This document shows, one piece after another, positions 39,792 through 60,598 of a stretch of DNA of 64,000 nucleotides; position 1 is the first letter of the stretch; every line of letters starts with the position of its first letter. Under the pieces are notes generated by a model. The model was not told the origin of the DNA and did not search any database. It saw nothing but the letters and a program-made list of their open reading frames with translations. The DNA is taken from assembly GCA_963782525.1 (NCBI GenBank), contig CAWAKC010000011.1, positions 64,001 to 128,000 on the forward strand. Direction: 5' to 3'. The stretch is from Candidatus Bathyarchaeota archaeon (GTDB taxonomy: Archaea > Thermoproteota > Bathyarchaeia > Bathyarchaeales > Bathycorpusculaceae). The position numbers were made by a program, and so were the translations under genes.

Positions 39792-40886
39792 ATGCAGATA
39801 AAACAACCCCTCACCGAATTTCTTCACTCAAAAGGCTTCCTAATCTTACTGGTCTTTTTCGCAATCTCAGCTGTGCTGCCAATAGTTATACCTGATAGTT
39901 TCTTTCTCTACATTCTAACTCTCATCTTTGTTTTCGCGATTTACGCGGCAAGCTGGAATTTTCTTGCTAATTCCGGTCAAGGCTCACTTGGACATGCAGT
40001 CTTCTTGGGTATCGGTGGATTCTCATCAGCAATCCTCGGGGGCAGAATTTCCATAGCGTTGATTGGGGTTTTGGGTGTAACTCAGATGCCGATTGGTGTC
40101 TTGTCGGTTTTTGTGCAGATTGTTGTGTTGCTCGTCGGTGGTTTGGTTTCTGCTGGAATTGGCTTGTTGATAGGTTTGGCTTGTGTTCGTTTGAAGGCTT
40201 GGTATTTGGCTATGGTGACGTTTGGTTTTTCAGTAATCGCTAGCACTCTCTCAAGCCAGTTTGATTCCTTCACCAACGGCATAAATGGTTTTTCTCCGGT
40301 TAGGCTTGTGCAGGGCGGATATCCGTTCTATTTTTTGGTGATCTCCTTTGCTGCAGCTTCAATCGCTACGATGTATCTGATCATGAGGTCACGGATGGGA
40401 TTAGCATTTCGGGCTATCCATGGAAACGAAGCAGAAGCTAGAATGATTGGAATTAACACAGCAAAGTATAAGCTAATAGCGTTTGTCATAAGCACCTTTT
40501 TCGCTGGCATAGCAGGCGGATTGTACTCGTATTTCTTAACTTTCATTGATAACTCCATCTTTTCCCCTGCCAACTCTTTCTTGCCACTTATTATGACTGT
40601 AATTGGAGGATTGGGAACCGTTGTTGGACCAATCATCGGCGCCATCTTCCTAGTTTCGATTCAGCAAATTTTAGCGCTTCCAGGAGTCGTTGACTCCCTA
40701 AGAACATCTCTTGGATCATACTTCCCAGGAGTAAGCAACGTTGGACCTCCCCTAAGCTACCTAATAATCGGAGTAATCCTGCTTGTGATTGTTATTTTCG
40801 CTCCAAAAGGGCTGATATCGCTTTTCCGAAAATTCTACAATTACCTCGTCAGCGAAGAAAAACCAAAAGGAACAAAAAAACAATGA
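39792..40886 (+). CDS. livM: branched-chain amino acid-type ABC permease
   Basis: SLGHAVF.GIG, YLAMVT, GLAFRAI, GGLGT..GP, APKG. Confidence 0.9.
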   Translation: MQIKQPLTEFLHSKGFLILLVFFAISAVLPIVIPDSFFLYILTLIFVFAIYAASWNFLANSGQGSLGHAVFLGIGGFSSAILGGRISIALIGVLGVTQMPIGVLSVFVQIVVLLVGGLVSAGIGLLIGLACVRLKAWYLAMVTFGFSVIASTLSSQFDSFTNGINGFSPVRLVQGGYPFYFLVISFAAASIATMYLIMRSRMGLAFRAIHGNEAEARMIGINTAKYKLIAFVISTFFAGIAGGLYSYFLTFIDNSIFSPANSFLPLIMTVIGGLGTVVGPIIGAIFLVSIQQILALPGVVDSLRTSLGSYFPGVSNVGPPLSYLIIGVILLVIVIFAPKGLISLFRKFYNYLVSEEKPKGTKKQ

Positions 40887-41245
40887 AAGGCACAGACTAC
40901 TTCGCAGAAGCTTTAGGCATAAAAGTTCTGGAAGCAAAAGACGGCTACGCAAAAGTAACCATGAAAGTCGAAAAAATCCACACAAACGCCCTGGGTTTCA
41001 CGCATGGCGGCGCAGTCTTCTCGCTGGCAGATTATGCTTTTGCTCACGCTTGCAATTGCGGCGAAAATGTGGCGGTGGCCGTTCAGGTTAGCATAAATTT
41101 CCTCAAACCCACAGTCGAGGGTGACCTTTTGACAGCTGAAGCAACCCGGGTTTCGGAAGGCAAAACAACGGGGTTATACCAGGTTACTGTTCGCAAAGAA
41201 GACAAGATCGTTGCGTTATTCACTGGGTTAGCCTTCAAAAAATAA
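40883..41245 (+). CDS. paaI: PaaI family hotdog thioesterase
   Basis: N..GFTHGGAVFSLAD.AF..ACN. Confidence 0.9.
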   Translation: MKGTDYFAEALGIKVLEAKDGYAKVTMKVEKIHTNALGFTHGGAVFSLADYAFAHACNCGENVAVAVQVSINFLKPTVEGDLLTAEATRVSEGKTTGLYQVTVRKEDKIVALFTGLAFKK

Positions 41246-41334
41246 CCTTGCCAACCAATCGCTATATAGACATTGTAGAAGAATAAACCAAGCCAACAAT
41301 ATTTTTATTGTAGACTTCGACCTAGGTTTATGAT

Positions 41335-41407
41335 GCTGGGGTGGCCGAACGGTTCAGGCGGTAGCCTGCAGAGCTGCTCTATATGGGTTCAACTCCCATC
41401 CCCAGCT
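41335..41407 (+). tRNA. tRNA-Cys(GCA)
   Basis: Acceptor GCTGGGG/CCCCAGC, U73 discriminator, anticodon arm GTAGC-CTGCAGA-GCTGC, T arm ATGGG-TTCAACT-CCCAT; no intron, CCA not encoded. Confidence 0.95.
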
Positions 41408-41439
41408 CTTTAGCATACATCCCCAGTTTTTGACAAATC

Positions 41440-41619
41440 TTACTTGCGTTTTCTGAAAAGCTTGACATTGCTCATTTCGCAGACGTATTCGTAGCCAGCT
41501 TCGATCAGTTGAGTTGCTTCTTTGACGTTTTCTGCGGCTTTACAATGGTATTCATCGTCTTCGAAGGTTACCAGTTGGGCGTAGATTAAGGTGTTTTTGA
41601 TGTTTTTGTGTCCTAATAG
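41440..41619 (-). pseudogene. C-terminal remnant of a tyrosine recombinase/integrase
   Basis: Translates LLGHKNIKNTLIYAQLV...YVCEMSNVKLFRKRK* (box II LGH...T..Y); no upstream part; stop codon about 30 nt from the tRNA 3' end. Confidence 0.8.
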
Positions 41620-41678
41620 CGGAGTTATATGTTAAATGTTCCAGTTTCAGATAAAAAAACAGGTTAAGTGTTAGGATA

Positions 41679-41879
41679 TTGGATAAAATCGTGTGTCCGC
41701 AGTGTAAAGCTCAAATTCTTCTCATTCCAGACCTAAAGAAAATGGCTGCAGTTATCGCTGATCATGTTGAAATCCATACTAATAAATTGAAGTCCAAAAA
41801 AATGCCGGAATCCGAAATTGCAAGACAGAAAAAAGAATTAGAACACACTTTGATTAAAGAAATAATAGACGCAATCTAG
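41679..41879 (+). CDS. small putative zinc-binding protein
   Basis: CPQC...HVEIH (C2H2-like). Confidence 0.65.
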   Translation: MDKIVCPQCKAQILLIPDLKKMAAVIADHVEIHTNKLKSKKMPESEIARQKKELEHTLIKEIIDAI

Positions 41880-42170
41880 AGAAATATGCATCATTTCCCT
41901 AAACGCTGCTTGTACTCGGTGATCCTTCTTTCGCCGCTTAAAACCTGAAGACTCGCTGGTAGAAATGGAGATGAATAAACAAAAGACAGGAATGAGCTTC
42001 CTCGGCATTGTTTTTGATAACCGTAAGAAAGTCATAAACCGATAGATCCATTCTGCTCTATGCGTAGAGCAAACTGCCCGCCACCCCCCGTGCGAATATG
42101 TACTTTTCAGCTATGAGCTAAAAAGGGAAGGGAATAGTACCTCAGTAATGCACAAGCGACATACTATTAT

Positions 42171-42593
42171 TTGGTGAGAAAGTATACAATAAAGAGATCG
42201 GAAGAGGCGTTTGTCTTGGAAGTAGAAAACGTGTTCAAAATAGCAGTGACCTATCCCAGAGTTCGCGAGTTTCTGACAAGCAAGAGTTGGGAATTCCAAG
42301 GAAAGGATGAGGAAATGGAGATGGACTCGTTCAGAAACAAGAAGACCGGGAAGAAGGTGTTGGAGGACATTTCGGAGGACTTTCCAGTGACCTTTCTTAT
42401 GGGCGAGCTTAGCGTGCCGGAGTTCAGATTCATCGCTAGTGAATTGACGCCGGAAATCCAGTTACTGGAAGTTGACAGTAGTTGGGAAGGTAAACCGACG
42501 ACCATCGTGGTGGCGATGACAGAAGAGCAAGTTAGGGACATGTTCGGCAGAAGAACGAAGATGAGAAAGCTTGCGGTTCACCGCGGACGCTAA
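42171..42593 (+). CDS. hypothetical protein
   Basis: 140-aa ORF, G-rich codon style unlike its neighbours. Confidence 0.65.
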   Translation: MVRKYTIKRSEEAFVLEVENVFKIAVTYPRVREFLTSKSWEFQGKDEEMEMDSFRNKKTGKKVLEDISEDFPVTFLMGELSVPEFRFIASELTPEIQLLEVDSSWEGKPTTIVVAMTEEQVRDMFGRRTKMRKLAVHRGR

Positions 42594-42627
42594 GTGATCC
42601 ATTTTGTAAACCGCTGTGCTGCTATAG

Positions 42628-42694
42628 AAAAAAGGGGGGTGCGCGGGAGACATCTCCATTAGAGTGTGGATTCAAAGTCCCACCTCTAGCACCA
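42628..42694 (+). repeat. cassette-end motif copy R1 (arm + degenerate tRNA 3' end)
   Basis: AAAAAAGGGGGGTGCGCGGGAGACATCTCC-N10-GGATTCAAAGTCCCACCTCTAGCACCA. Confidence 0.75.
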
Positions 42695-42799
42695 TTATAG
42701 ACAAATCTAAGGGAGTTCGTACACGAGATACTACGCTAGCCTTGTTAAAGAAGAAACTTTACATTTTAGTGCGTCTTATTCTATTTGAGGAGAAATACA

Positions 42800-43027
42800 A
42801 TGGTTGTTCCTTTCTATATGCTTATTCGAACTAAGAAAGGACAGGCTTTTCTTACCGTTCAAGAAGCACAAAAAATCGAAGGCGTTAAAGTTGTGCATTC
42901 CGTTATGGGGTCATACGACGTCATACTCTATGCTGAAGCAAGCGACCTTGCTGACCTAAGGCGCATCCGCGAAGCTATAACCCAAATCAGTGCTATAATT
43001 CGAACCGAAGTAGCAGTCCACACATAA
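42800..43027 (+). CDS. Lrp/AsnC ligand-binding-domain-only protein
   Basis: IEGVKVVHSVMGSYDVILYAEA..L..I...IRTE; GAGGAG upstream. Confidence 0.85.
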   Translation: MVVPFYMLIRTKKGQAFLTVQEAQKIEGVKVVHSVMGSYDVILYAEASDLADLRRIREAITQISAIIRTEVAVHT

Positions 43028-43121
43028 TTATATCAAAGACAATGGGTACCGATTAATTTCTCACGTCCTTTCACGACAAAAATGAGCATAGGCTATGCAT
43101 CGGCAAAACATCATTCATTTT

Positions 43122-43174
43122 AAAAAAGAGTGGGTTTCGCGGGAGACATCTCCACTTGTCCTAAGGTTCAAATC
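43122..43174 (+). repeat. cassette-end motif copy R2
   Basis: AAAAAAGAGTGGGTTTCGCGGGAGACATCTCC-N11-GGTTCAAATC; CGCGGGAGACATCTCCA identical to R1. Confidence 0.75.
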
Positions 43175-43259
43175 AACCTGACCCTCAACAGGCAAGTTAG
43201 CTTTAAGCAACGGCTTGTACCCATTTGGGTTCAAGTATGGCTCGGCTTGCTTCTGTATG

Positions 43260-43376
43260 CTCAATTTTATAAGCCAGTTTTGCAACTGGGGGATCGGTAA
43301 TACCTATGCAAACCACTCCCTTGAAGTCTAAGCGGGGTAGGGAATCGTACTTCAACTCAAAAGCCCATCCCCAGCT
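43260..43376 (+). repeat. ~116-bp direct repeat copy A ending in the tRNA-Cys 3' end (att-like / tRNA-like)
   Basis: Matches 48352..48467 with 3 substitutions and 1 indel; ends CCCATCCCCAGCT, identical to tRNA 41395..41407. Confidence 0.9.
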
Positions 43377-43564
43377 GTTTGTCCGAACCCTATGCTTTCG
43401 CGGGATTATTTCCGTTTTCTGAACCGTTTTTTGGCTACCGCCCTCTGGTCAGGTCACTGGCTTTATCACGTACTAATTCTTCAAAATTCAAGTTCGTCGA
43501 TAATGACTTATTTTAAATAACTCTTAATTAGTTGCTGTTCTAATATGATGTTGAGGTTTTTAGT

Positions 43565-43996
43565 TTGTCAAATGACGATATACCACTCCATTTTGAAGGC
43601 CATGATGATGTAGTATCTGAGAAAGTAATCCATTTTGAAGGAAAGAATAAGGATTTAAATCAATTATCACAACAAATCATTCAGAAACTATCCTCCGAAG
43701 GCTACAAAACACAGTCAACCAATAATCCTATGGGCATAATCATACAAGCGCAGAAAGCTGGAGTTTTACGGGGCATCATCGACGCGAATAGAGCGTTCAC
43801 CATCCTAATATCGGGCCAGCCCAACAATTTCGCAATCCACATAGGCATAGGCAAATTCATCCAGAACATAGCAGTGGCGTCGGTCGAATCCATTTTAACG
43901 GTCGGCTTATTTCTCATCGTTGACGTACCCGAAATGCTGTGGACCCTTGAAGTAGAAAAAGGAATCATCAAAGACATGACTCAGATCGTAGGTTAA
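43565..43996 (+). CDS. hypothetical protein
   Basis: 143-aa ORF with TTG start and GAGGT upstream; C-terminal hydrophobic segment. Confidence 0.75.
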   Translation: MSNDDIPLHFEGHDDVVSEKVIHFEGKNKDLNQLSQQIIQKLSSEGYKTQSTNNPMGIIIQAQKAGVLRGIIDANRAFTILISGQPNNFAIHIGIGKFIQNIAVASVESILTVGLFLIVDVPEMLWTLEVEKGIIKDMTQIVG

Positions 43997-44102
43997 ACCG
44001 CAAAAAGCTGTTACTCGGTTTTCTATCACCAAATTACCCAATTCGAGCCAAATGGCTATATCAGAGATGCGCTGCGATTTTTGTTCCAGCTATAACCTGA
44101 AG

Positions 44103-44158
44103 AAAAAAAATGGGTTTGCGAGTGAAATCTCTTTTAGGGCATAGGTTCAAATCCTCAT
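44103..44158 (+). repeat. cassette-end motif copy R3
   Basis: AAAAAAAATGGGTTTGCGAGTGAAATCTCT-N11-GGTTCAAATCCTCAT. Confidence 0.65.
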
Positions 44159-44521
44159 GAAAACCTGTAGCCGAAGTCACGGCAAAGAGCACATTGAATT
44201 TTGCCCTTGCGGGTTTCACTTAAGCCGTTCTACTACAGCAACCTCGGCTACAACATGCCAACCTCTGATACAGACCCTCTGTATGTCGGCTTTGACTACT
44301 TACTTCTCTAACTAATTTGAGATTGATGTATGGCATATCTCATTCCTAAATGAAAAGATACTCCAAAACCCAAAAAAATAATTAAAGAAAAAATAATGTG
44401 TTAAAACTTCTTATTTGCTTTATTTTGAGTTTAAGGCAAAACTGGTTTTAGCGGTCAAAAGACAAATCTGAAAATACAAAAACTGCCTTTATATTTTTAT
44501 TAAGCTAATAGTATCTGCCAT

Positions 44522-44872
44522 ATGTTTAGGTCAACGAAAAGAACTTTGGCTTTCTTGACAACAACGGAAACCCAAAAGACGCATTTAACACATTTGCGAA
44601 TGTGACTTCTCCAAATTCTGTTACATCAAATTCATCCCAAACCCCTACCCCCTTCAACCAATCCAGCAACTTCTTCACCTACACTAGCCGCGACCCCAAC
44701 TGCTACCCCAAACCCTTCGCAACCCCCCTCTCCAACTTCAAATCCTACACCAACACCCATCGTTCCAGAGATATCATCGATAGTAATTTTACCATTGTTT
44801 GCAACTATGCTCTTCATTGCAATAAAACTCAAGCATCAAAAGACCACGACATTGAGCAAATCGATTTCTTGA
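44522..44872 (+). pseudogene. internally deleted surface-protein gene (GH-like barrel end, P/T linker, VPE+TM tail)
   Basis: MFRSTKRTLAFL start joins out of frame to NFGFLDNNGNPKDAFNTF; a further shift leads to ...PTPTPIVPEISSIVILPLFATMLFIAIKLK..*. Confidence 0.55.
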
Positions 44873-44924
44873 AAACTAAACCAGAAACATAACAAATACC
44901 TTGTGAAAACTCACTTTATACAAT

Positions 44925-44979
44925 AAAGGATGGATCTCGGTGATATCTCCGCTCAGGCGGGGTTCAATTCCGATCCCCA
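44925..44979 (+). repeat. cassette-end motif copy R4
   Basis: AAAGGATGGATCTCGGTGATATCTCC-N10-GGTTCAATTCCGATCCCCA; 44960..44979 matches tRNA-Cys 41385..41404 at 18 of 20 positions. Confidence 0.7.
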
Positions 44980-45036
44980 ATACAAAAACTGACATGGATG
45001 TAAGGGTTCGGTTCTATAGTAGGCTCATTTTTTGAC

Positions 45037-45076
45037 TGTTGAAATGGTGTGGTTCAAATCCCATCCCGTTTCAACA
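45037..45076 (+). other. tRNA-like minihelix hairpin capped by a T-loop
   Basis: TGTTGAAATGG-TGTGGTTCAAATCCCATC-CCGTTTCAACA. Confidence 0.55.
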
Positions 45077-45087
45077 CTTTTTGGTTA

Positions 45088-45450
45088 TTACTTTTTAGGG
45101 CGTACGCGTTTGGCCTTGCGATTTAATGTTTTTATCGGCTCTAAGATGCATGCTGAGTAAGACCCTGGCACAATCAGTTCTATGAACTCAGCGCGTAAAG
45201 CTTTTTCTTCCGGTATCTCGCTGAACCCGTTTTCCCAACCTTCAATATTAGCTAAACTTTCAAAACCCCACAAGGCAGTGAATCCCCCGACTGAACCACC
45301 ATATTTGTGTCTGAGAACCCGCAGAGACGTTACACCCCTAAAGAAACATGGCTTCTTCTTCATCAAGGCAACTAGTTTTTTGCCCCACTCGTTATGCTCA
45401 TCTAGTTTGTCAGGGTTAACAACGTATGTTCTAGCGAGATAAACAGTCAT
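45088..45450 (-). CDS. hypothetical protein, dimeric alpha-beta barrel/NIPSNAP-like
   Basis: 120 aa; YVVNPDKLDEH...LWGFESLA pattern; GGGGAG upstream. Confidence 0.7.
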   Translation of the reverse strand: MTVYLARTYVVNPDKLDEHNEWGKKLVALMKKKPCFFRGVTSLRVLRHKYGGSVGGFTALWGFESLANIEGWENGFSEIPEEKALRAEFIELIVPGSYSACILEPIKTLNRKAKRVRPKK

Positions 45451-46099
45451 ATCTGCTCCCCAAAATATAACGTACTCAGAGGATTAAAAAAATTCCGCAT
45501 GACACGTTCAAATCACAGCGAACCAAAATACATATTCCTTTTGAAACATATTCTATCATGGTAAACAATAAAAGAAGTGTATAACAAGATGGAAATCATG
45601 AAAAAATCGATAAACGTCACAATTAGAGAAGAACCCCCTAACCCTAAACCAACCCCTGACCCTCAGCCAAATCCAATCCCAAATCCAATTTAAATGGCTT
45701 AATTCTCGCACCTATGGCTTAATGACTCTTCTGTTCGGTATCTCAGGCATTTTGTCAATAATGGTTTCGCAAGTCTATTTGCCTACAGGTTCATTGTGTT
45801 CTTTGCCACTCTTAGTTTAAGGTTTATTTCTAGTTGTGATTTCAATAGTTTTCTTGTGGAAAATTTAATAGGAAAAAGAGGATTTTTCAGTATTAATTAG
45901 TGTCTGGGAACGGTAACTACGGCGATGAGAACTCGATTTTTAAAAAGTCTTTTTAGCGCAGAAAGGAATTGTAGCGTATGCCAGAAGATAACCAGTTATT
46001 TACCTATGGTAATATTGGGGAATCATAACTCAAATCAGATGACTATCCTCAGCTTTTCTCTTGGCAAAGCATATTGGACAGTCACGCCATTTATTGTGC

Positions 46100-46588
46100 A
46101 TGGAAAAAACTGAATACACTGAATGGGTTCCAGCAGGTCTTTTAGTTAAAGGCTTATTTGCAATGGTTACTGCAATTGTTGTAATTGTCAGTATTGCCGT
46201 TTTCTTATTCAGCAATGACCCATTAGTCGAAAATTTATTGGCAATTTCCTTTTCTTGGGGTACCTTGGCTTTTTTGCTTTTTATCTACTGGAATTACAGA
46301 GGTCTCCGAATACAAATAAAGGATAATACTCTGTTTCTCGACTATGGATTATTCAACAAAAAATCCTTTTCATTAAACGAAATCGTTTCCTGCAAAAAAA
46401 CTAGAGCTTTCGGAAGATACCTTGGTATCGGAGTAAGATATGGTCTAGACCATTCAATGGCCTATACTACTTCTTTTGCAAACGCTGTGGAGATCATGCA
46501 TAATGAAGAGAGATTATTTGTTTTTTCATCTAAGTACCCTGAAAAGGTATGTGGAATAATAGAAGCAATTAAAGGCAAGGGGTCATAG
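46100..46588 (+). CDS. two-TM membrane protein with PH-like C-terminal domain
   Basis: Two TM segments, then YLGIGVRY...FVFSSKYPE. Confidence 0.7.
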   Translation: MEKTEYTEWVPAGLLVKGLFAMVTAIVVIVSIAVFLFSNDPLVENLLAISFSWGTLAFLLFIYWNYRGLRIQIKDNTLFLDYGLFNKKSFSLNEIVSCKKTRAFGRYLGIGVRYGLDHSMAYTTSFANAVEIMHNEERLFVFSSKYPEKVCGIIEAIKGKGS

Positions 46589-46653
46589 AGTAAATATGCT
46601 TAGCGATAAAAGACTATTCATCAATATTTCTTGACGGCGGTTAGTCAAATTTC

Positions 46654-48329
46654 GAGACTGTGTGAAAAGTCTGCTCTAACTCGTCTATTATGCCGTTAAC
46701 CTTAAATCTAGACCCTTCGCCCATAACAAACAAGACCAAAATAAGTGAGCAGACAATGAACGATGAAACCGACAGCTATGTAGAAGGCTTATCCAGAAAC
46801 CAAACGTTCCTACTGCCCAAAACCATAGAAGAATACGTAGAACCAGACAACCCAGTCAGATTCATAGACGCCTACGTAAACACGCTGGACATGGAAAAGT
46901 TAGGCTTCACCCACTCAACACCACAAGACCTTGGAAGACCATCATACAACCCAAAAGATCTCTGTAAACTCTATCTCTACGGAGGCCTAAACCACATCCG
47001 ATCAAGCAGAAAGCTAGAACGAGAATGCAAAACAAACCTTGAGGCAATGTGGCTGCTCAAAGGCTTAGCACCCGATTTTAAAACCATAGCGGATTTTAGA
47101 AAAGACAACCCAGCAGCCATATGCGCCTTGTTCAAAGATTTTGTAGCTTTCTTAAAAGATCTCAGTCTCTATGGAGCAAAACAAGTAACCGTAGATGGCA
47201 CCAAACTTCGGGCCGTCAACTCCAATGATAAAGCCTTTACCCAACGAGCGCTTGCAAAGAGAATAAAGGTCATGGAAAAATCAGTAAAACACTACCTAGA
47301 CGAGTTAGATGCTGCAGATGAGCAGGAAGCATCTGACGAGCAACAAGCAAGTAGCGAGTCAGGTGAAGTGGCGAAGGCTTTTATGGTAGACAAATTGGCT
47401 GCGTTGCTTGAGAAAAAAGAAAAGAGCCAAGAAATCCTTGGTAAAATAGAAAAGAGTGGTCAAAAGGAAGTTGCTCTAACTGATCTGGATTGTCGGCAGA
47501 TGATGAATCATGGCAGAGTTGAATCCTGCTATAACATGCAGGCAGCAGTGGATTCAAAAAACCATCTCATCGTCAACTACCTGGTGACTAACGAAGCTTC
47601 AGACCTAAATCAGCTCAGCGGAGTAGCTATAAGCGCAAAAGAAACACTAGGAGTAGAGCAGATTGATTGTATTTCTGATAAAGGTTATTTTGACTTCATG
47701 CAGATTAAGCAATGTGTCGACAGTGGGGTTACGCCTTATGTTGCAGTGAAGAGATCTGGAAGCGGTGGCGGTCTTGTGTCTCCGGAGTTTACTGCTGACA
47801 AATTCCGTTATGATAAGAGTGCTGATGTGTATGTTTGTCCAGCTGGGCGGCGTCTTTTGTTTTATTGTTTGAGCGTTCGTGAAGGGATTGAGATGCGTAT
47901 TTACAGATGCCAGAAAGGTGTTTGCTCTTCATGCCAATTTTTTATGACTAAGTGCACAGGCAATAAGGTAGGTCGGGTAATTTGGCGGTGGGTGCACGAA
48001 GAAGTTGTCGATGATATGAGAAAGCGGATGAAATTGCATCCAGAGATTATGGGTGAACGCAAAAAAGTGATTGAGCATACGTTTGGAACTTTGAAGAGAG
48101 CGTTTGGTGCTCCATATTTGCTGCTTAAAGGTCTTCGCAAGGTTAGTGGGGAGGTTGGGTTGCTTTTGTTTTCTTATAATTTGAGGAGAGCTCTAAACAT
48201 TCTTGGGGTTGAAGCTCTAATCCAAGCGCTTGTTAAAAAATAAAGAATAAGAGAAAGTAAAATCTCAAAAAGTATTAAGTACTTTTTCAAGTTAACAACT
48301 GGCCGCTGCGCTATTTTTTACACGGTCTC
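46654..48329 (+). mobile_element. IS1182-family insertion sequence
   Basis: TIRs GAGACTGTGTGAAA (46654) and TTTTACACGGTCTC (ends 48329), 12/14 match; 4-bp TSD TTTC on both sides. Confidence 0.9.
46756..48243 (+). CDS. IS1182-family DDE transposase
   Basis: GRPSYNP..L.LYG..SSRKLE, PDFKTIADFR, VDGTK, SDKGY, CPAG, IEHTFGTLK, YNLRR. Confidence 0.93.
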   Translation: MNDETDSYVEGLSRNQTFLLPKTIEEYVEPDNPVRFIDAYVNTLDMEKLGFTHSTPQDLGRPSYNPKDLCKLYLYGGLNHIRSSRKLERECKTNLEAMWLLKGLAPDFKTIADFRKDNPAAICALFKDFVAFLKDLSLYGAKQVTVDGTKLRAVNSNDKAFTQRALAKRIKVMEKSVKHYLDELDAADEQEASDEQQASSESGEVAKAFMVDKLAALLEKKEKSQEILGKIEKSGQKEVALTDLDCRQMMNHGRVESCYNMQAAVDSKNHLIVNYLVTNEASDLNQLSGVAISAKETLGVEQIDCISDKGYFDFMQIKQCVDSGVTPYVAVKRSGSGGGLVSPEFTADKFRYDKSADVYVCPAGRRLLFYCLSVREGIEMRIYRCQKGVCSSCQFFMTKCTGNKVGRVIWRWVHEEVVDDMRKRMKLHPEIMGERKKVIEHTFGTLKRAFGAPYLLLKGLRKVSGEVGLLLFSYNLRRALNILGVEALIQALVKK

Positions 48330-48351
48330 TTTCTTTAACTAAAAAACCAAA

Positions 48352-48467
48352 CTCAATCTTATAAGCCAGTTTTGCAACTGGGGGATCGGTAATACCTATG
48401 CAAGCCACTCCTTTGAAGTCTAAGCGGGTAGGGAATCGTACTTCAACTCAAAAGCCCATCCCCAGCT
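48352..48467 (+). repeat. ~116-bp direct repeat copy B ending in the tRNA-Cys 3' end (followed by CCA)
   Basis: Near-identical to 43260..43376; continues ...CCCCAGCT-CCA. Confidence 0.9.
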
Positions 48468-49023
48468 CCAGGGTTGGACTTTTTTATTTTTTCAAAATGT
48501 GAAGGTAAAAAACAATACTTTTGCTCGTAGCTAAGGTATCTGAAGTTCTTGAAAACAAACTATTACCGACAAAACAAACCATAAGGCAATAGAGGTGCTA
48601 TACTGTAACAGTCCCATGCAACCCCAACTTTAACCGCAACATGCTTTCCCATCTTCATCCCATCCACACCAACATGGCGCTGCATAGGATTGCGATTAAA
48701 AATTCCACTCCACCCATCCCAACAGCAACCGGAAAACAGCCCAAACCAAAAAACCAAACGTATCCAAGCTAGAGGATGGGATGGGGAAACTCCGAACCCA
48801 CCCATCCCCACAAAAAGAAAAAACTGAAAGCTCATTTGAAGAAAAATCCTTTAGCTGATGAATGGCTGTAGTTAGGTAAGAACATAAGATAGGCAACAAA
48901 CCCTATTTCTGAAAAAACTAATACGAGCGCAAAGCTGGAAGTTCTACTTCACGGCAATTTCGTGGCCAATTTGTACATTGAAATTCTCTAAACCATTATA
49001 TACGTAATTAACGGCTAAGAAGC

Positions 49024-49251
49024 TTGGTGGGCGTACTCTTGGAAAGAGATCAAGCTGTGGCTTTGCTGAAGGAGATCATGACTCATGACTTGGCGCAGCC
49101 GACAGCCGTTTATGTTAGAGAAAATAAGGGCAAGTTTGAACTGGTTCTGAAGGATGAGTGTAGGTCTCCTTTACAAAATTTTATTGCAGAAAAAGGTCTA
49201 AAGTGGCGCATAAATAAGGAAATGGGCGTTTGCATTATCTATAAACCATGA
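49024..49251 (+). CDS. small hypothetical protein
   Basis: 75-aa ORF downstream of a TTATATA box. Confidence 0.6.
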   Translation: MVGVLLERDQAVALLKEIMTHDLAQPTAVYVRENKGKFELVLKDECRSPLQNFIAEKGLKWRINKEMGVCIIYKP

Positions 49252-49482
49252 CGCATCTGGTAAACCCATCCCAACCCTAATGCATTGAAAGAGCAAAAAC
49301 CCTTCAAAAATTGAAGGGCACAGGATAAAACAACCTAAAAATCATTTTTTGTATTTTATTTTCTTGTGATGAGATGAAACCTGACAGACCTTTCCTAGTA
49401 ACCTCATAATCGGCGGAAGACCTCTGAAAGCCAAATAAGAAAGATTTTTAGTTATAAGCGGCTTCTTTTAAGTGGTGAATGC

Positions 49483-50064
49483 ATGAGCCAACCTGTTAAT
49501 CTTCTCGAAGCAAACGACTTTATTATGAAAAAGAAAATTCTCTCTCTGCGAGAACATTACGACTTTGAAGACTTAACAGGAACAAAAATAGGAGAAGCCG
49601 AAGGTAACCTCTTTCAGGTTCCAGCTAAATTCAACGTTAACGATACCCACGGGTTAGAGTTGATGCGTTTAGAAGGAAAAGTACTCTCACTCCGAAAACA
49701 ATTCACTTTCCATGGTGCATCTGGAGAAGAACTGGGAACCATAAAAAAGAAAATAGTCAAGTTGATTGGGGAAGAATTCTGGGTGGAAAAAGACGGCGTC
49801 GAGTTCATGCGCATCTATGGAAACTTTACCGAGCACCACTATCAAATGGAGGTTAAAGGCGTTCAAGTTGCTTCTATCCACAAGAAATGGGTAACGGTCA
49901 GAGACACGCTTGGGGTCTCCATAACAGGAAACGTCGATCATCGAGTAATTATCGGTGCAGTAATCGTGATAGAACACATAGAAGTCACAGAGAAAAACTC
50001 AAGCAACTCCGGCAACTTCGGCGGTCGCTTCGGGAACACGGGATCTGGCTTTCCACAATACTAA
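49483..50064 (+). CDS. LURP-one-related/scramblase-like (tubby C-terminal-like) protein
   Basis: MKKKILSLREHY..., repeated K.LSLR / KKWVTVRDT beta motifs. Confidence 0.85.
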   Translation: MSQPVNLLEANDFIMKKKILSLREHYDFEDLTGTKIGEAEGNLFQVPAKFNVNDTHGLELMRLEGKVLSLRKQFTFHGASGEELGTIKKKIVKLIGEEFWVEKDGVEFMRIYGNFTEHHYQMEVKGVQVASIHKKWVTVRDTLGVSITGNVDHRVIIGAVIVIEHIEVTEKNSSNSGNFGGRFGNTGSGFPQY

Positions 50065-52846: not shown

Positions 52847-54055
52847 CTAGAAACTCACAAAATTGAACCCAATTATCGACACAACGCCCCATAAATTAAC
52901 CGAGATGCTTAGAATAATCAGGGCTTTTTCTTCCCAACCAAGATTTTCCCTCATGCCCTTTGCAACGAGCAACATTAGAAAGGGTGTGAAGTCGAGGCTG
53001 AATCGATAGCCAAACTGGGTAAAGCCAACGGTACCATGGGTGATTAAGATGGGCAGAATGCATGCAACAGCTAAAGCAGCGTATTTGCTTAGGCGGTTCC
53101 AGGGTCCCTTGAAGATGTAAATGAAGGCAGGTGTGGTAAAGAATAATCCTAGTCCAATCCAGTTGGGTTCAAAATATGGGAATTTGCTGAGGAGTATTGG
53201 TCCTTGGAAGAGGATGGCGTAGATGTGGCGGGGGATGTAGCTTAAGCTGAAGATGCCGTTTGTGAAGTAGGGGTCTTGCTGGATGCCGGGGATGAGGTTA
53301 TAGCCCAAATCTGAGAAGACGCCCCAGCGGCCAAAATTGTACATTTCATACAGGCCGACCAATATGCCTAAACCTACCGCAAAATAGGCAGCCTGCTTTA
53401 ACCTGGGTTTCCAAGTGCTGTTCTGCTCATAAATTAGAAGCAGAAAGAACGGGAAAGAGAGGACAACTGGCAGTCGTGAAAGGAACGCACACCCCAACAG
53501 TACTCCGATGAGAAACGGGTTTTTCTTGGAGAGGGCAAGAATTATGGCTAAGGTGAGGAAAAGCACGGCGACAACATGCTCGATGTACCAAGCTGAACCG
53601 ACAGATGCAATGAACCAAAAACAAGTTCCGAAGCCAAAAAGAGCCGTCAGCCACAGCGCCTTGTTACCATTTACACCAGTTTTCTTCAGCATAAACCATG
53701 TCGCTGCGACACAGATGCATGCCAAAAATACAGACATTAATCCCTGATCAAAGCCAGTTCCAAAAATTGCTACGAATGGCAAGAGAAGAACTGCAGGCAT
53801 TGGAGGATAAACAACGTAGTAGTTGCCGTTGAATGGGACGATTTCAGCAAGCGATGTTCCTCCATCTGTCACTCCTAATCTGCCATGGAGGAATGCGTCA
53901 GCTAAATAAACAAAGTGGTTTTGTCCAGGCGGTGGACCTTTGGAGAGCAAGAAAACAATCAGGGATATGAGCGCTATGATGATGAGTTTGTAGCGAAGCC
54001 TTAAAGAAGCAACATCTTGGTACACTTGCTTCAGCGTCTCGATGGTTTTGCTCAT
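52847..54055 (-). CDS. multi-pass membrane protein, GT-C glycosyltransferase-like
   Basis: YLADAFLHGRL, YYVVYPPMPA, YNFGRWG, GYRFSLD; about 10 TM segments. Confidence 0.7.
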   Translation of the reverse strand: MSKTIETLKQVYQDVASLRLRYKLIIIALISLIVFLLSKGPPPGQNHFVYLADAFLHGRLGVTDGGTSLAEIVPFNGNYYVVYPPMPAVLLLPFVAIFGTGFDQGLMSVFLACICVAATWFMLKKTGVNGNKALWLTALFGFGTCFWFIASVGSAWYIEHVVAVLFLTLAIILALSKKNPFLIGVLLGCAFLSRLPVVLSFPFFLLLIYEQNSTWKPRLKQAAYFAVGLGILVGLYEMYNFGRWGVFSDLGYNLIPGIQQDPYFTNGIFSLSYIPRHIYAILFQGPILLSKFPYFEPNWIGLGLFFTTPAFIYIFKGPWNRLSKYAALAVACILPILITHGTVGFTQFGYRFSLDFTPFLMLLVAKGMRENLGWEEKALIILSISVNLWGVVSIIGFNFVSF

Positions 54056-59914: not shown

Positions 59915-60598
59915 TTGACAGTTTACTTATCAAGCATCGTTGGGAGCGCAAGCATAGGCGTGTATTCGCTTGCAACAGAGAACATAGTGTTGATTCCTCG
60001 AATGGTGCCACAGCAGAAAGCGCAGGAAATCGCGGACTGGCTAAAAGTGAAGCTTGCATACACATCCATTAGCGGTTCAGTCCTCGCAGGTTCACTGGTA
60101 TGCGCAAACTCTACAGGCATGCTGGTTTCCAACGGCATCCGCGAAGAAGAGTTAGCAGCGTTAAAATCGGTTTATGAAGGAAACATCACAGTCATGGATT
60201 CCAAAAAAACCGCGTATGGAAACTTGATTTTAACAAGCGACAAAGGTGCAGTAGTTGATCCACGCTTCAAAGAGGCTGAAATCAAAAAAATCTCCAAAGC
60301 CTTAGGTTTGGAAGCGGTGCCCACAGAAATCGCAGGGTTACCCTACGTTGGCTCATTGGCTGTAGCTACAAACAAAGGCCTTTTAGCTCACCCTTTGCTG
60401 AAGGATGACGAGAGAAAAACCTTAGAATCTGTCCTCAAAGTGCCTGTTGACGTCGGCACCATAAACTGTGGGGTCCCCTATGTTGGTACTGGCTTAATCG
60501 CTAATAGTCATGCTGCAGTAGCTGGTTCTATGACAACTGGACCCGAGATGTTTATAATTGGGAACGCACTGGATGTTGTGCAGGAAGAAGAAAAATGA
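59915..60598 (+). CDS. eif6: translation initiation factor 6 (aIF6)
   Basis: IGVY, GNLIL, VGS...TNKGLLAHP, GTINCG, TTGPE. Confidence 0.95.
   Translation: MTVYLSSIVGSASIGVYSLATENIVLIPRMVPQQKAQEIADWLKVKLAYTSISGSVLAGSLVCANSTGMLVSNGIREEELAALKSVYEGNITVMDSKKTAYGNLILTSDKGAVVDPRFKEAEIKKISKALGLEAVPTEIAGLPYVGSLAVATNKGLLAHPLLKDDERKTLESVLKVPVDVGTINCGVPYVGTGLIANSHAAVAGSMTTGPEMFIIGNALDVVQEEEK

Follow-up and report, generated by a model that had tools for sequence, protein, structure and literature searches.

A probable array of small integrative elements, stacked behind a tRNA-Cys gene in a Bathyarchaeia genome

Integration by tyrosine recombinases into the 3' ends of tRNA genes, the displaced tRNA fragments that mark it and the tandem stacks to which it leads are already known. 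'Gene capture in archaeal chromosomes' was reportedly treated under that title by She et al. in 2001. In tDNA islands the integrase gene lies beside the tRNA gene, the tRNA regains its 3' part from the island, and the far end is marked by the displaced fragment (Islander, PMC4383910; archaeal review, PMC8371274, as far as the text available goes); the same portion of the review describes tandem integration at one tRNA in archaea. In Streptococcus, cis-mobilizable elements (CIMEs), which occur with ICEs (integrative and conjugative elements) and with IMEs (integrative and mobilizable elements), are described in the text available as having lost their integration genes while keeping attL and attR, so that newcomers enter an att site and composite arrays result (PMC5704250). 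The tycheposons of Prochlorococcus are, in the part of the preprint available, tyrosine-recombinase elements at tRNA genes with small adaptive cargo (bioRxiv 10.1101/2020.12.28.424599). Here we describe an array behind a tRNA-Cys gene in a stretch of 64,000 nucleotides (the window) from a Candidatus Bathyarchaeota archaeon, C11:64001-128000 of a genome of 2.87 Mb in 12 contigs. Four repeats, R1 to R4, close the units of this array. With a probability of roughly 0.6, we read them as attR-type junctions of small integrative elements of the Bathyarchaeia, stacked behind the tRNA, with the units being integrase-less miniatures moved in trans. Throughout, G000 is the genome that holds the window, other G numbers are congener genomes, L numbers are retrieved loci, and C numbers are contigs.

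Bathyarchaeia are abundant, mostly uncultured archaea of sediment and soil, and to our knowledge their mobile elements have barely been described. The tRNA-Cys(GCA) gene (41335..41408, +; Rfam tRNA model, 54.5 bits), which is the sole tRNA found in the window by ARAGORN, is the anchor of the array and its integration target. Starting 31 nt after the tRNA and convergent with it is a 63-aa C-terminal remnant of a Zn-ribbon tyrosine integrase (41440..41631, -; ...LLGHKNIKNTLIYAQL...KLFRKRK*), the left arm of the first element, which has 53% identity (E 3e-20) to residues 354-419 of P0001, a full-length integrase of the same genome. The integrase remnant that an earlier note on this DNA had placed against the tRNA is thus real. 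The locus is an accretion array, with the integrase remnant at the tRNA followed by integrase-less single-gene units: there are four units of 0.5-1.3 kb, each with one + strand open reading frame (ORF) and with an arm motif and a tRNA-like core at its far end, interspersed with 118-bp repeats (DR110) and an insertion sequence (IS) element.

The ORF140 unit (42076-42658) begins with the last 8 nt of tRNA-Arg(CCG) and about 60 nt that trail that tRNA in G010 and G129 (42076..42142, +), carries ORF140 (42171..42593, +), a cargo gene without assigned function, and is closed by R1 (42625..42695, +), whose core ends in GCACCA and best matches tRNA-Tyr/Leu. Unit 2 encodes an 80-aa Lrp/AsnC ligand-binding-domain protein (42785..43027, +; PF01037, E 6.7e-9) and ends in R2 (43121..43190, +), which has a degenerate T-arm core. 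The left part of the ORF143 unit (43409-44154) is at 43409..43510 (-); the copies of the unit in G001 and G049 have a Zn-ribbon remnant of the integrase, and it is with the first half of this remnant that the left part aligns. The cargo of the unit is ORF143 (43565..43996, +), also without assigned function, and the unit ends in R3 (44100..44155, +), whose core stops just past the T-loop. Unit 4 has as its left arm a degenerate integrase N-terminal Zn-ribbon remnant (44156..44225, -; ...KIQCALCRDFGYRFS*), then a P/T-rich ORF of 96 aa with a hydrophobic tail (44602..44892, +) and finally R4 (44925..44985, +), a weaker arm motif with a core resembling the tRNA-Cys 3' end. All four repeats reported in the earlier note are present, and each does lie shortly after the stop of a + strand ORF (stops at 42593, 43027, 43996 and 44892, with the repeat starting 33-107 nt later). 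Pfam names just two of the array's ORFs, the Lrp/AsnC-type protein and the transposase of the IS element; as to cargo function, PADLOC gave no match for nine ORFs and NCBIfam gave sub-threshold matches only.

R1 to R4 share a three-part build, consisting of an A-run with a G-rich stretch, then (C/T)GCGGGAGACATCTCC or a diverged form of it and, about 12 bases on, a T-arm-like GGTTCAAATCC. A repeat search grouped R1-R3 at 100, 85 and 68% identity and also listed T-arm copies at 44961-44977 and 45051-45067. When a profile built from only five copies outside R1-R4 was searched genome-wide, the E-values were 1.5e-7 for R2, 4.6e-5 for R1, 3.3e-3 for R3 and 0.088 for R4; because this profile is independent of them, R1-R3 are beyond chance and R4 is marginal. 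The motif occurs on seven contigs of G000 (profile built from seven copies), with the consensus A-run (A5-8), G-rich stretch, GCGGGWGAnnTCTCCA, and then 12-13 nt to the T-loop. The exact pattern GCGGGWGANNTCTCCA was matched 262 times in the genus, where 70 of 120 genomes contain it, while the reversed control gave 3 matches, and the arm motif was found in Bathyarchaeia outside the genus too. Short-spaced arrays of the motif on one strand are common in the genus, a spacing of 0.2-1.6 kb recurring in many genomes. There are also same-strand pairs only 64 nt (G087:C1:1232295/1232359) and 227 nt (G091:C7:83450/83677) apart, between which no gene fits.

The near-constant distance from motif to T-loop that had been noticed in the window extends to the family. 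Of 54 profile matches examined, 3 were without the motif pattern and 16 without TTCRA within 30 nt, which leaves 35 scorable copies; the distance is 13 nt in 26 of these, 12 nt in 6, 11 nt in 2 and 18 nt in one, so that 34 of the 35 fall within 11-13 nt. The palindrome GGAGA..TCTCC, which had also been pointed out, is exact in R1 and R2 but is not kept in the family, the middle pair being unpaired in 15 of 31 copies, and in these 31 copies no covariation was supported, the observed level being reached by shuffles. From the near-fixed spacing and the lack of covariation in the palindrome we infer that a protein recognises the conserved motif by its sequence, in a register that is fixed with respect to the crossover region, and that the motif is not an RNA structure. 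An RNA gene or structure had been considered and was rejected, since the Rfam matches at E<=1 over 40000-50000 are the tRNA and two chance miRNA matches only and the hairpin is without covariation.

The nature of the tRNA-like part became apparent from other loci of G000, some of whose tRNAs are intron-bearing. Well-preserved copies of the motif are followed by a 20-30 nt copy of a tRNA 3' end, and the tRNA gene itself lies 0.8-6 kb upstream on the same strand, with a Zn-ribbon tyrosine integrase convergent to it. Behind tRNA-Leu(tag) at C1:316613 there are motif and core copies at 320369 and 322256 (3.7 and 5.6 kb downstream) and a decayed one at 324382; tRNA-Ser(gga) at C11:54299 is followed by a copy at 60409 (25/26 identical), tRNA-Ala(tgc) at C1:435412, on the minus strand, by one at 434639, and tRNA-Ser(cga) at C7:325224 by one at 330082 (27/29 identical). 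In these core copies the identity runs from the 5' T-stem through the acceptor strand, CCA included, and the motif precedes each. Integration into the 3' part of a tRNA gene classically leaves such a footprint. The tRNA-like part is therefore a duplicated att core and the motif the element-side (P) arm of attP/attR, and R1-R4 are read as attR-type junctions. Split or permuted tRNA halves and an acceptor/T-arm minihelix, both considered by eye, were dropped once the cores proved to be copies of upstream tRNAs.

The proposal of the earlier note that the repeats are junctions of a tyrosine-integrase system targeting the T-arm and 3' end of tRNAs, and that units stack behind the tRNA, is upheld. 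Its tRNA-mimic att sites give way to ordinary duplicated att cores, and the resemblance to tRNA-Cys on which they were based holds for one repeat of the four. The R4 core has 18/20 identities to tRNA-Cys, which ranks first among 44 tRNAs, and 0 of 2000 shuffles scored as high. The R1 core is nearer to tRNA-Tyr and tRNA-Leu (scores of 18 and 16, vs 11 for Cys), while R2 and R3 have generic T-arm cores only, for which tRNA-Cys ranks 36 and 17 of 44.

A generic terminator, a miniature inverted-repeat transposable element (MITE) or a tRNA-like 3' UTR processing signal, with no tie to recombination, would also be dispersed in the genome and could follow ORFs as closely as the motif does in the window. 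A T-run ends archaeal transcription, and the strand opposite the motif does read a short palindrome and then a T-run. However, the strand of the upstream genes carries the A-run and not the T-run, the tRNA-like part copies a specific upstream tRNA and not a generic one, the orientation of the motif is tied to that of the integrase (see below), and there is neither an Rfam family match nor covariation, so we regard this explanation as very improbable. The genome-wide dispersal that the earlier note had associated with such a repeat is literally present, but it is not independent of tRNAs. No inverted repeats bounding the units appeared in a general repeat listing, although no search aimed at terminal inverted repeats or target duplications was made.

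A tblastn search of G000 with the integrase remnant found two full-length genes and several C-terminal remnants. P0001 (C6:36035-37291, 419 aa) is convergent with tRNA-Pro(ggg) and has a ..F(R/K)KRK end, the earlier note having asked for intact integrases that end in ..FRKRK; the second full-length gene is at C3:145870-147054. One remnant (C11:58211-58390) follows a displaced tRNA-Ser 3' half, and another (C10:203842-203994) abuts a motif and core copy, as expected where one stacked element meets the next. P0001 has a PF00589 catalytic domain (71.3 bits, cut-off 27.1) and an N-terminal Zn-ribbon that meets the NCBIfam cut-off for the IS1/IS1595 zinc-binding domain; it is far under the cut-off of the XerA model. 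In the genus the family has 444 matches in 104 of 120 genomes, with up to 15 per genome and 36-86% identity, and most of the 150 matches listed have open frames. A scan of one genome per species gave 69 loci with relatives of the integrase, 63 of them titled Bathyarchaeota or Bathyarchaeia. In a viral collection the pattern was found in 3 stretches, with no tRNA or integrase in the short loci returned, and the integrase gave 2 contig-end matches only.

The motif profile has 25 matches in the 69 integrase loci, 20 of them on the strand opposite the integrase. At E<1e-3 the count is 15 of 17, which agrees with the prediction of the attR model. In five loci (L032, L047, L057, L063 and L071) the core matches a same-strand tRNA of its own locus; a distal displaced tRNA 3' copy is present in these five and in G002 and G011, and in the window it is present in R4 only. 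L032 is a complete element of 3.3 kb, with tRNA-Leu(cag), a 413-aa integrase, a RelE-like pair, and the motif with a 22/24 core. L020 is a complete element of about 5.2 kb, whose putative methyltransferase and restriction enzyme are named from translations only. Because such full-size relatives with their own integrase exist (3.3-8.5 kb), the small units of the window are best read as miniaturised derivatives.

Intact integrases adjoin tRNA-Pro(ggg) in G000 and tRNA-Pro or tRNA-Leu in L009, L013, L016 and L032, and the closest relatives of P0001 are repeatedly found beside tRNA-Pro(ggg) (L009, L013, L016, L018, L020, L047 and L057). A single resident 'platform' integrase at tRNA-Pro(ggg) was ruled out by the number of family members per genome and their range of identity. 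A split integrase of the SSV type, where attP is located within the integrase ORF and integration divides the gene into Int(N) and Int(C), was also rejected: the integrase stop lies 28-72 nt before the tRNA, no open frame crosses core and motif, and stops are found at the core edge.

The tRNA-Cys locus of related genomes shows how such an array may grow. The gene upstream of tRNA-Cys and the tRNA itself are conserved in the genus, but the sequence behind the tRNA has nothing in common with the window for many kb, even in G010 and G023, with flanks of 93-94% identity; the conserved right flank resumes near 52847. Variation in content between relatives, which the earlier note had asked about, is therefore complete at this site. 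G011 has motif and Cys-core copies at 770 and 1613 behind tRNA-Cys, corresponding to units of about 0.7 and 0.85 kb, and G002 has them at 1384 and 5616, the latter with a perfect Cys core. The integrase remnant touches tRNA-Cys in G000, G011 and G022. Because in G002 it lies 5.5 kb out, after the perfect core, this arrangement shows directly that newer units were inserted at tRNA-Cys and pushed the older element outward.

Four single-ORF units that share one orientation and each end in a conserved site, together with hypervariable content behind tRNA-Cys among congeners, recall an integron. The earlier note had accordingly proposed an integron-like array on a dedicated tRNA-Cys platform; in a true platform of this kind promoterless cassettes would be expressed and the motif would act as attC. 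We consider this highly unlikely. The locus has no IntI and no intact integrase, only the 63-aa remnant, and P0001 reaches just 68.2 bits on the integron-integrase model TIGR02249 (cut-off 265) and 45.6 bits on NF011946 (cut-off 435). There is no attC-like extended inverted repeat, only a 5-bp palindrome without covariation. At least four further tRNA genes of G000 (Leu, two Ser and Ala) have the same junctions behind them, the ORF140 unit lies behind tRNA-Arg in congeners, and motif arrays occur also without any tRNA in the retrieved stretch, which makes tRNA-Cys one hotspot among several. No attI site or common promoter was noticed at the array, but no search aimed at promoters was made.

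A search with 41409-45100 against the genus genomes showed that parts of the array recur with sharp ends. Copies of the ORF143 unit in G049, G001 and G020 have 94, 90 and 88% identity, and the homology ends inside the R3 T-loop. In G001 tRNA-Ala(tgc) directly precedes the unit, whose end is formed by the motif and a 20-nt exact copy of the tRNA-Ala core, so that this unit, which like units 2 and 4 is without a recombinase, is bounded by a tRNA gene and a core copy as a CIME would be. Between G000 and G001 the identity is 90% in the unit but only 73% in the tRNA-Cys flanks. In G049 the unit lies between two motif and core junctions. The ORF140 unit is 91% identical in G010 and 87% in G129, in both directly behind tRNA-Arg(ccg), and homology to G023 and to a contig of sequencing run X2 ends at 42657/42658, between motif and core.

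The left ends of the units recur as well. A remnant of the integrase consisting of the Zn-ribbon only, on the opposite strand, starts units in G001, G049, G091 and at two places in G000, which are unit 4 (right after R3) and C6:101979 and have different cargo. The stop codon of this remnant lies at the edge of the preceding core, and the four cysteines are intact in G049 (about 37 aa). Left arms of this kind were located at 44156-44225(-) in the window, at L008 5844-5987(+), in L104 and L131 (G049), and at L128 6561-6665. The N-terminal four-cysteine Zn-ribbon alone may make a stand-alone arm-binding protein. Non-autonomous elements moved in trans would leave such a pattern, in which arms are shared by units of different cargo and the same unit turns up at different tRNAs, carrying the local core.

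We put the odds at somewhat better than even that the units are integrase-less miniature derivatives, comparable to CIMEs, and that full-length integrases of the same family move them in trans. Supply in trans, as the earlier note had it, is feasible, as G000 (P0001) and most genus genomes have intact integrases. Two of the units are found at other tRNAs as discrete units, although no circles were seen. Alternatively, full-size elements could have integrated serially at tRNA-Cys and then shrunk by deletion, the small units never having been mobile. The recurrence elsewhere would then reflect the spread of full-size parents and parallel decay. The full-size elements do carry the same arm, integrase remnants of many lengths are common, the R1-R3 cores are degenerate and that of R3 incomplete, and no excision product was seen in low-depth contigs. 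Against this speak the same integrase-less unit with the same Zn-ribbon left arm in G001 and G049, and an arm of that type before different cargo in G000. R1 and R2 have the same motif 16-mer but cores that have diverged past recognition, which is odd under neutral decay, and short-spaced arrays are found in many genomes. Both serial shrinkage at tRNA-Cys and parallel decay elsewhere seem to us unlikely, if well worth keeping in mind.

Several observations weigh against movement of the units in trans. The R1-R3 cores do not match tRNA-Cys, the R3 core ends early, and unit 2 has no recognisable left arm, so the units could be dead relics. For the insertion of unit 2 between R1 and R2, a test for hybrid cores made by eye gave no support, as the T-stem halves do not cross-pair. 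ORF140 occurs alone, without the motif, in about 12 unrelated contexts among the retrieved loci, so that this gene can be moved by something other than the integrase. Arrays in other genomes mix cores of different tRNAs; these could arise by insertion into resident cores via the common T-loop or by homologous recombination between conserved arms. No attR was detected within 36 kb for the full-length ..KRK integrase at tRNA-Pro(ggg) of G000. No RNA run containing the stretch is listed. The four DNA runs that were compared contain 20-33% of the sampled words, as low-depth contigs, and in these contigs there was no circular junction, excision product or empty site. The sequence behind tRNA-Ala varies in every genome, and no clean empty site is definable there. 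A single weak joint, 43367 -> 44979, was seen in run X3, with only 24 letters on one side.

The copies of ORF140, which number 22 in loci retrieved from other genus genomes, are 88-96% identical. Those that occur alone (window 42143-42599, L109-L122) have the same sharp ends and GCGCGC-rich sequence on both sides, and some genomes have two copies.

A complete element of the family reads, in the sense of the tRNA, tRNA gene, integrase, cargo, arm motif, 12-13 nt, and a tRNA copy from the 5' T-stem to the 3' end. The integrase, of about 410-420 aa, has an N-terminal IS1/IS1595-like Zn-ribbon, the catalytic domain and a ..FRKRK tail, and is transcribed towards the tRNA. The motif would be bound by a protein at a fixed distance from the crossover region, for which the Zn-ribbon of the integrase is a candidate, and the T-run opposite the A-run may end transcription of the integrase in the circular form. 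If the units are moved in trans, they would keep the recombination arms and lose the integrase, full-length integrases of the same family acting on them, and insertion would take place via the common T-loop, either where a tRNA gene offers a matching core or within an array, at a core already resident there. More speculatively, and on balance we doubt it, the Bathyarchaeia may have a working gene-cassette system on T-arms, in which a conserved arm of about 45 nt, a T-arm core and a short left arm, in some cases a Zn-ribbon copy standing by itself, suffice for a single-gene unit, resident integrases excise units and re-insert them in any T-loop core regardless of the tRNA from which it comes, and arrays behind tRNA genes serve as landing pads, an independently arisen functional analogue of integrons.

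A second repeat family is interspersed in the array. DR110 copy a, of 118 bp (43260..43377, +), ends in the tRNA-Cys 3' end CCCATCCCCAGCT, and copy b (48352..48467, +), 97% identical to it, is the final att-like site of the array. DR110 is sharply bounded and present several times per genome, and among the matches listed about 30 genus genomes have it at 81-93% identity. Other copies in G000 are at C3:200932-200998(-), C12:22440-22508(+) and C2:29364-29430(+). The repeat ends in the last 13 nt of tRNA-Cys, the G000 copies all ending ...AAAAGCC(C/A)ATCCCC, and an inverted repeat lies inside it; DR110 may be a MITE or else supply the att arm of a second element family. The sequence after the R4 core resembles that after the copy at C3:200932, and the weak X3 joint links DR110 copy a to this point after the R4 core, so that in R4 the shared Cys core may connect a first-family arm with a second-family left end.

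The IS element (46654..48345, +) encodes a DDE transposase of 517 aa (46690-48243; DUF772 and DDE_Tnp_1 / DDE_Tnp_1_6 in Pfam). Contigs of three runs leave the stretch at its ends, at 46653 and 48329/48345, and it is a later insertion into the array. Its depth in the four metagenome runs is greater than that of the surrounding array. The array also has a 66-aa ORF without family (41679..41879, +), with a 95% identical copy in G114, and an extra tRNA T-arm fragment without arm motif (45049..45070, +; 16/17 to tRNA-Cys), which includes the T-arm repeat listed at 45051-45067.

Two other loci of G000 show what larger arrays may contain. At L001 (C11:53800-61200) the intron-bearing tRNA-Ser(gga) has a stack of two different elements. 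The first, of 3.7 kb, has a displaced long tRNA-Ser 3' half, from the anticodon loop on, and the second, of 2.3 kb, has a C-terminal integrase remnant at its start and motif and core at its end; a weak match to Archaeal phage integrase (PF16795), below cut-off, is at L001 3616-4470(-). The array behind tRNA-Leu(tag), L003 (C1:315800-325200), has a 371-aa ORF with a weak CAP12/Pycsar TIR-domain match, below cut-off, and a 922-aa PQQ/Ig-like surface protein, and its cargo may be of a defence type.

The finding gives a sequence signature (arm motif, 12-13 nt and T-loop) by which integration junctions can be located throughout the genus, delimits an integrase family that is abundant and has a transposase-like Zn-ribbon, and supplies candidate non-autonomous single-gene units. 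If these units are moved in trans, site-specific integrases can give rise to miniatures of a MITE-like kind, by which single genes are shuttled from one tRNA locus or species to another, and this would explain how the regions behind a tRNA come to be wholly different despite flanks of 93-94% identity. A full-text literature search found no description of the elements of this integrase family or of the arm motif, though supplements may hold more. Two studies of Bathyarchaeia (PMC10848311, PMC11697101) describe proviruses and islands, and not this family, in the text available, and the available portion of the archaeal tyrosine recombinase review (PMC8371274) has no mention of 'Bathyarchaeota' or 'zinc'. 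New here are the host clade, the Zn-ribbon integrase family together with its short, conserved arm in a fixed register, the reduction of units to an extreme at which one gene and no integrase is left, and the recurrence of such units at different tRNAs.

The system is a miniature version of a known gene-capture route, closest to tDNA islands, CIMEs and tycheposons, and is not an integron. With integrons it shares co-oriented single-gene units closed by a recombination site and a recombinase acting in trans, but here there is no IntI-type integrase, the site is an arm with a T-arm core and not a folded attC, and there are many loci in place of one platform. Tandem stacking behind a short direct repeat is reportedly also found in the ssrA-specific islands of Dehalococcoides. 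Those islands differ from the present units, to judge from the available text, in being bacterial, operon-sized and located at the tmRNA gene (PMC3146451). Tycheposons, which we compared by description, are similar in that repeated integration pushes older elements inward and leaves integrase fragments and partial tRNAs; unlike the units described here, they carry replication modules, and a conserved short arm motif and single-gene integrase-less units are not among the features described in the part of the preprint available. The CIMEs, as the available text presents them, resemble the units in keeping their att sites, in having lost the integration genes and in stacking by accretion. They are, however, bacterial, several kb in length and ride on conjugative elements, whereas here the host is archaeal, the units, which are not known to use a transfer vehicle, are of much smaller size, and one and the same unit occurs at different tRNA genes. 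The tDNA islands have in common with this locus the tyrosine integrase beside the tRNA, the displaced tRNA fragment at the far end and tandem integration. In contrast to them, most units here are of 0.5-1.3 kb, with one gene and no integrase, a short conserved arm at a fixed distance from the T-loop is common to elements that target different tRNAs, and single arrays mix the cores of several tRNAs.

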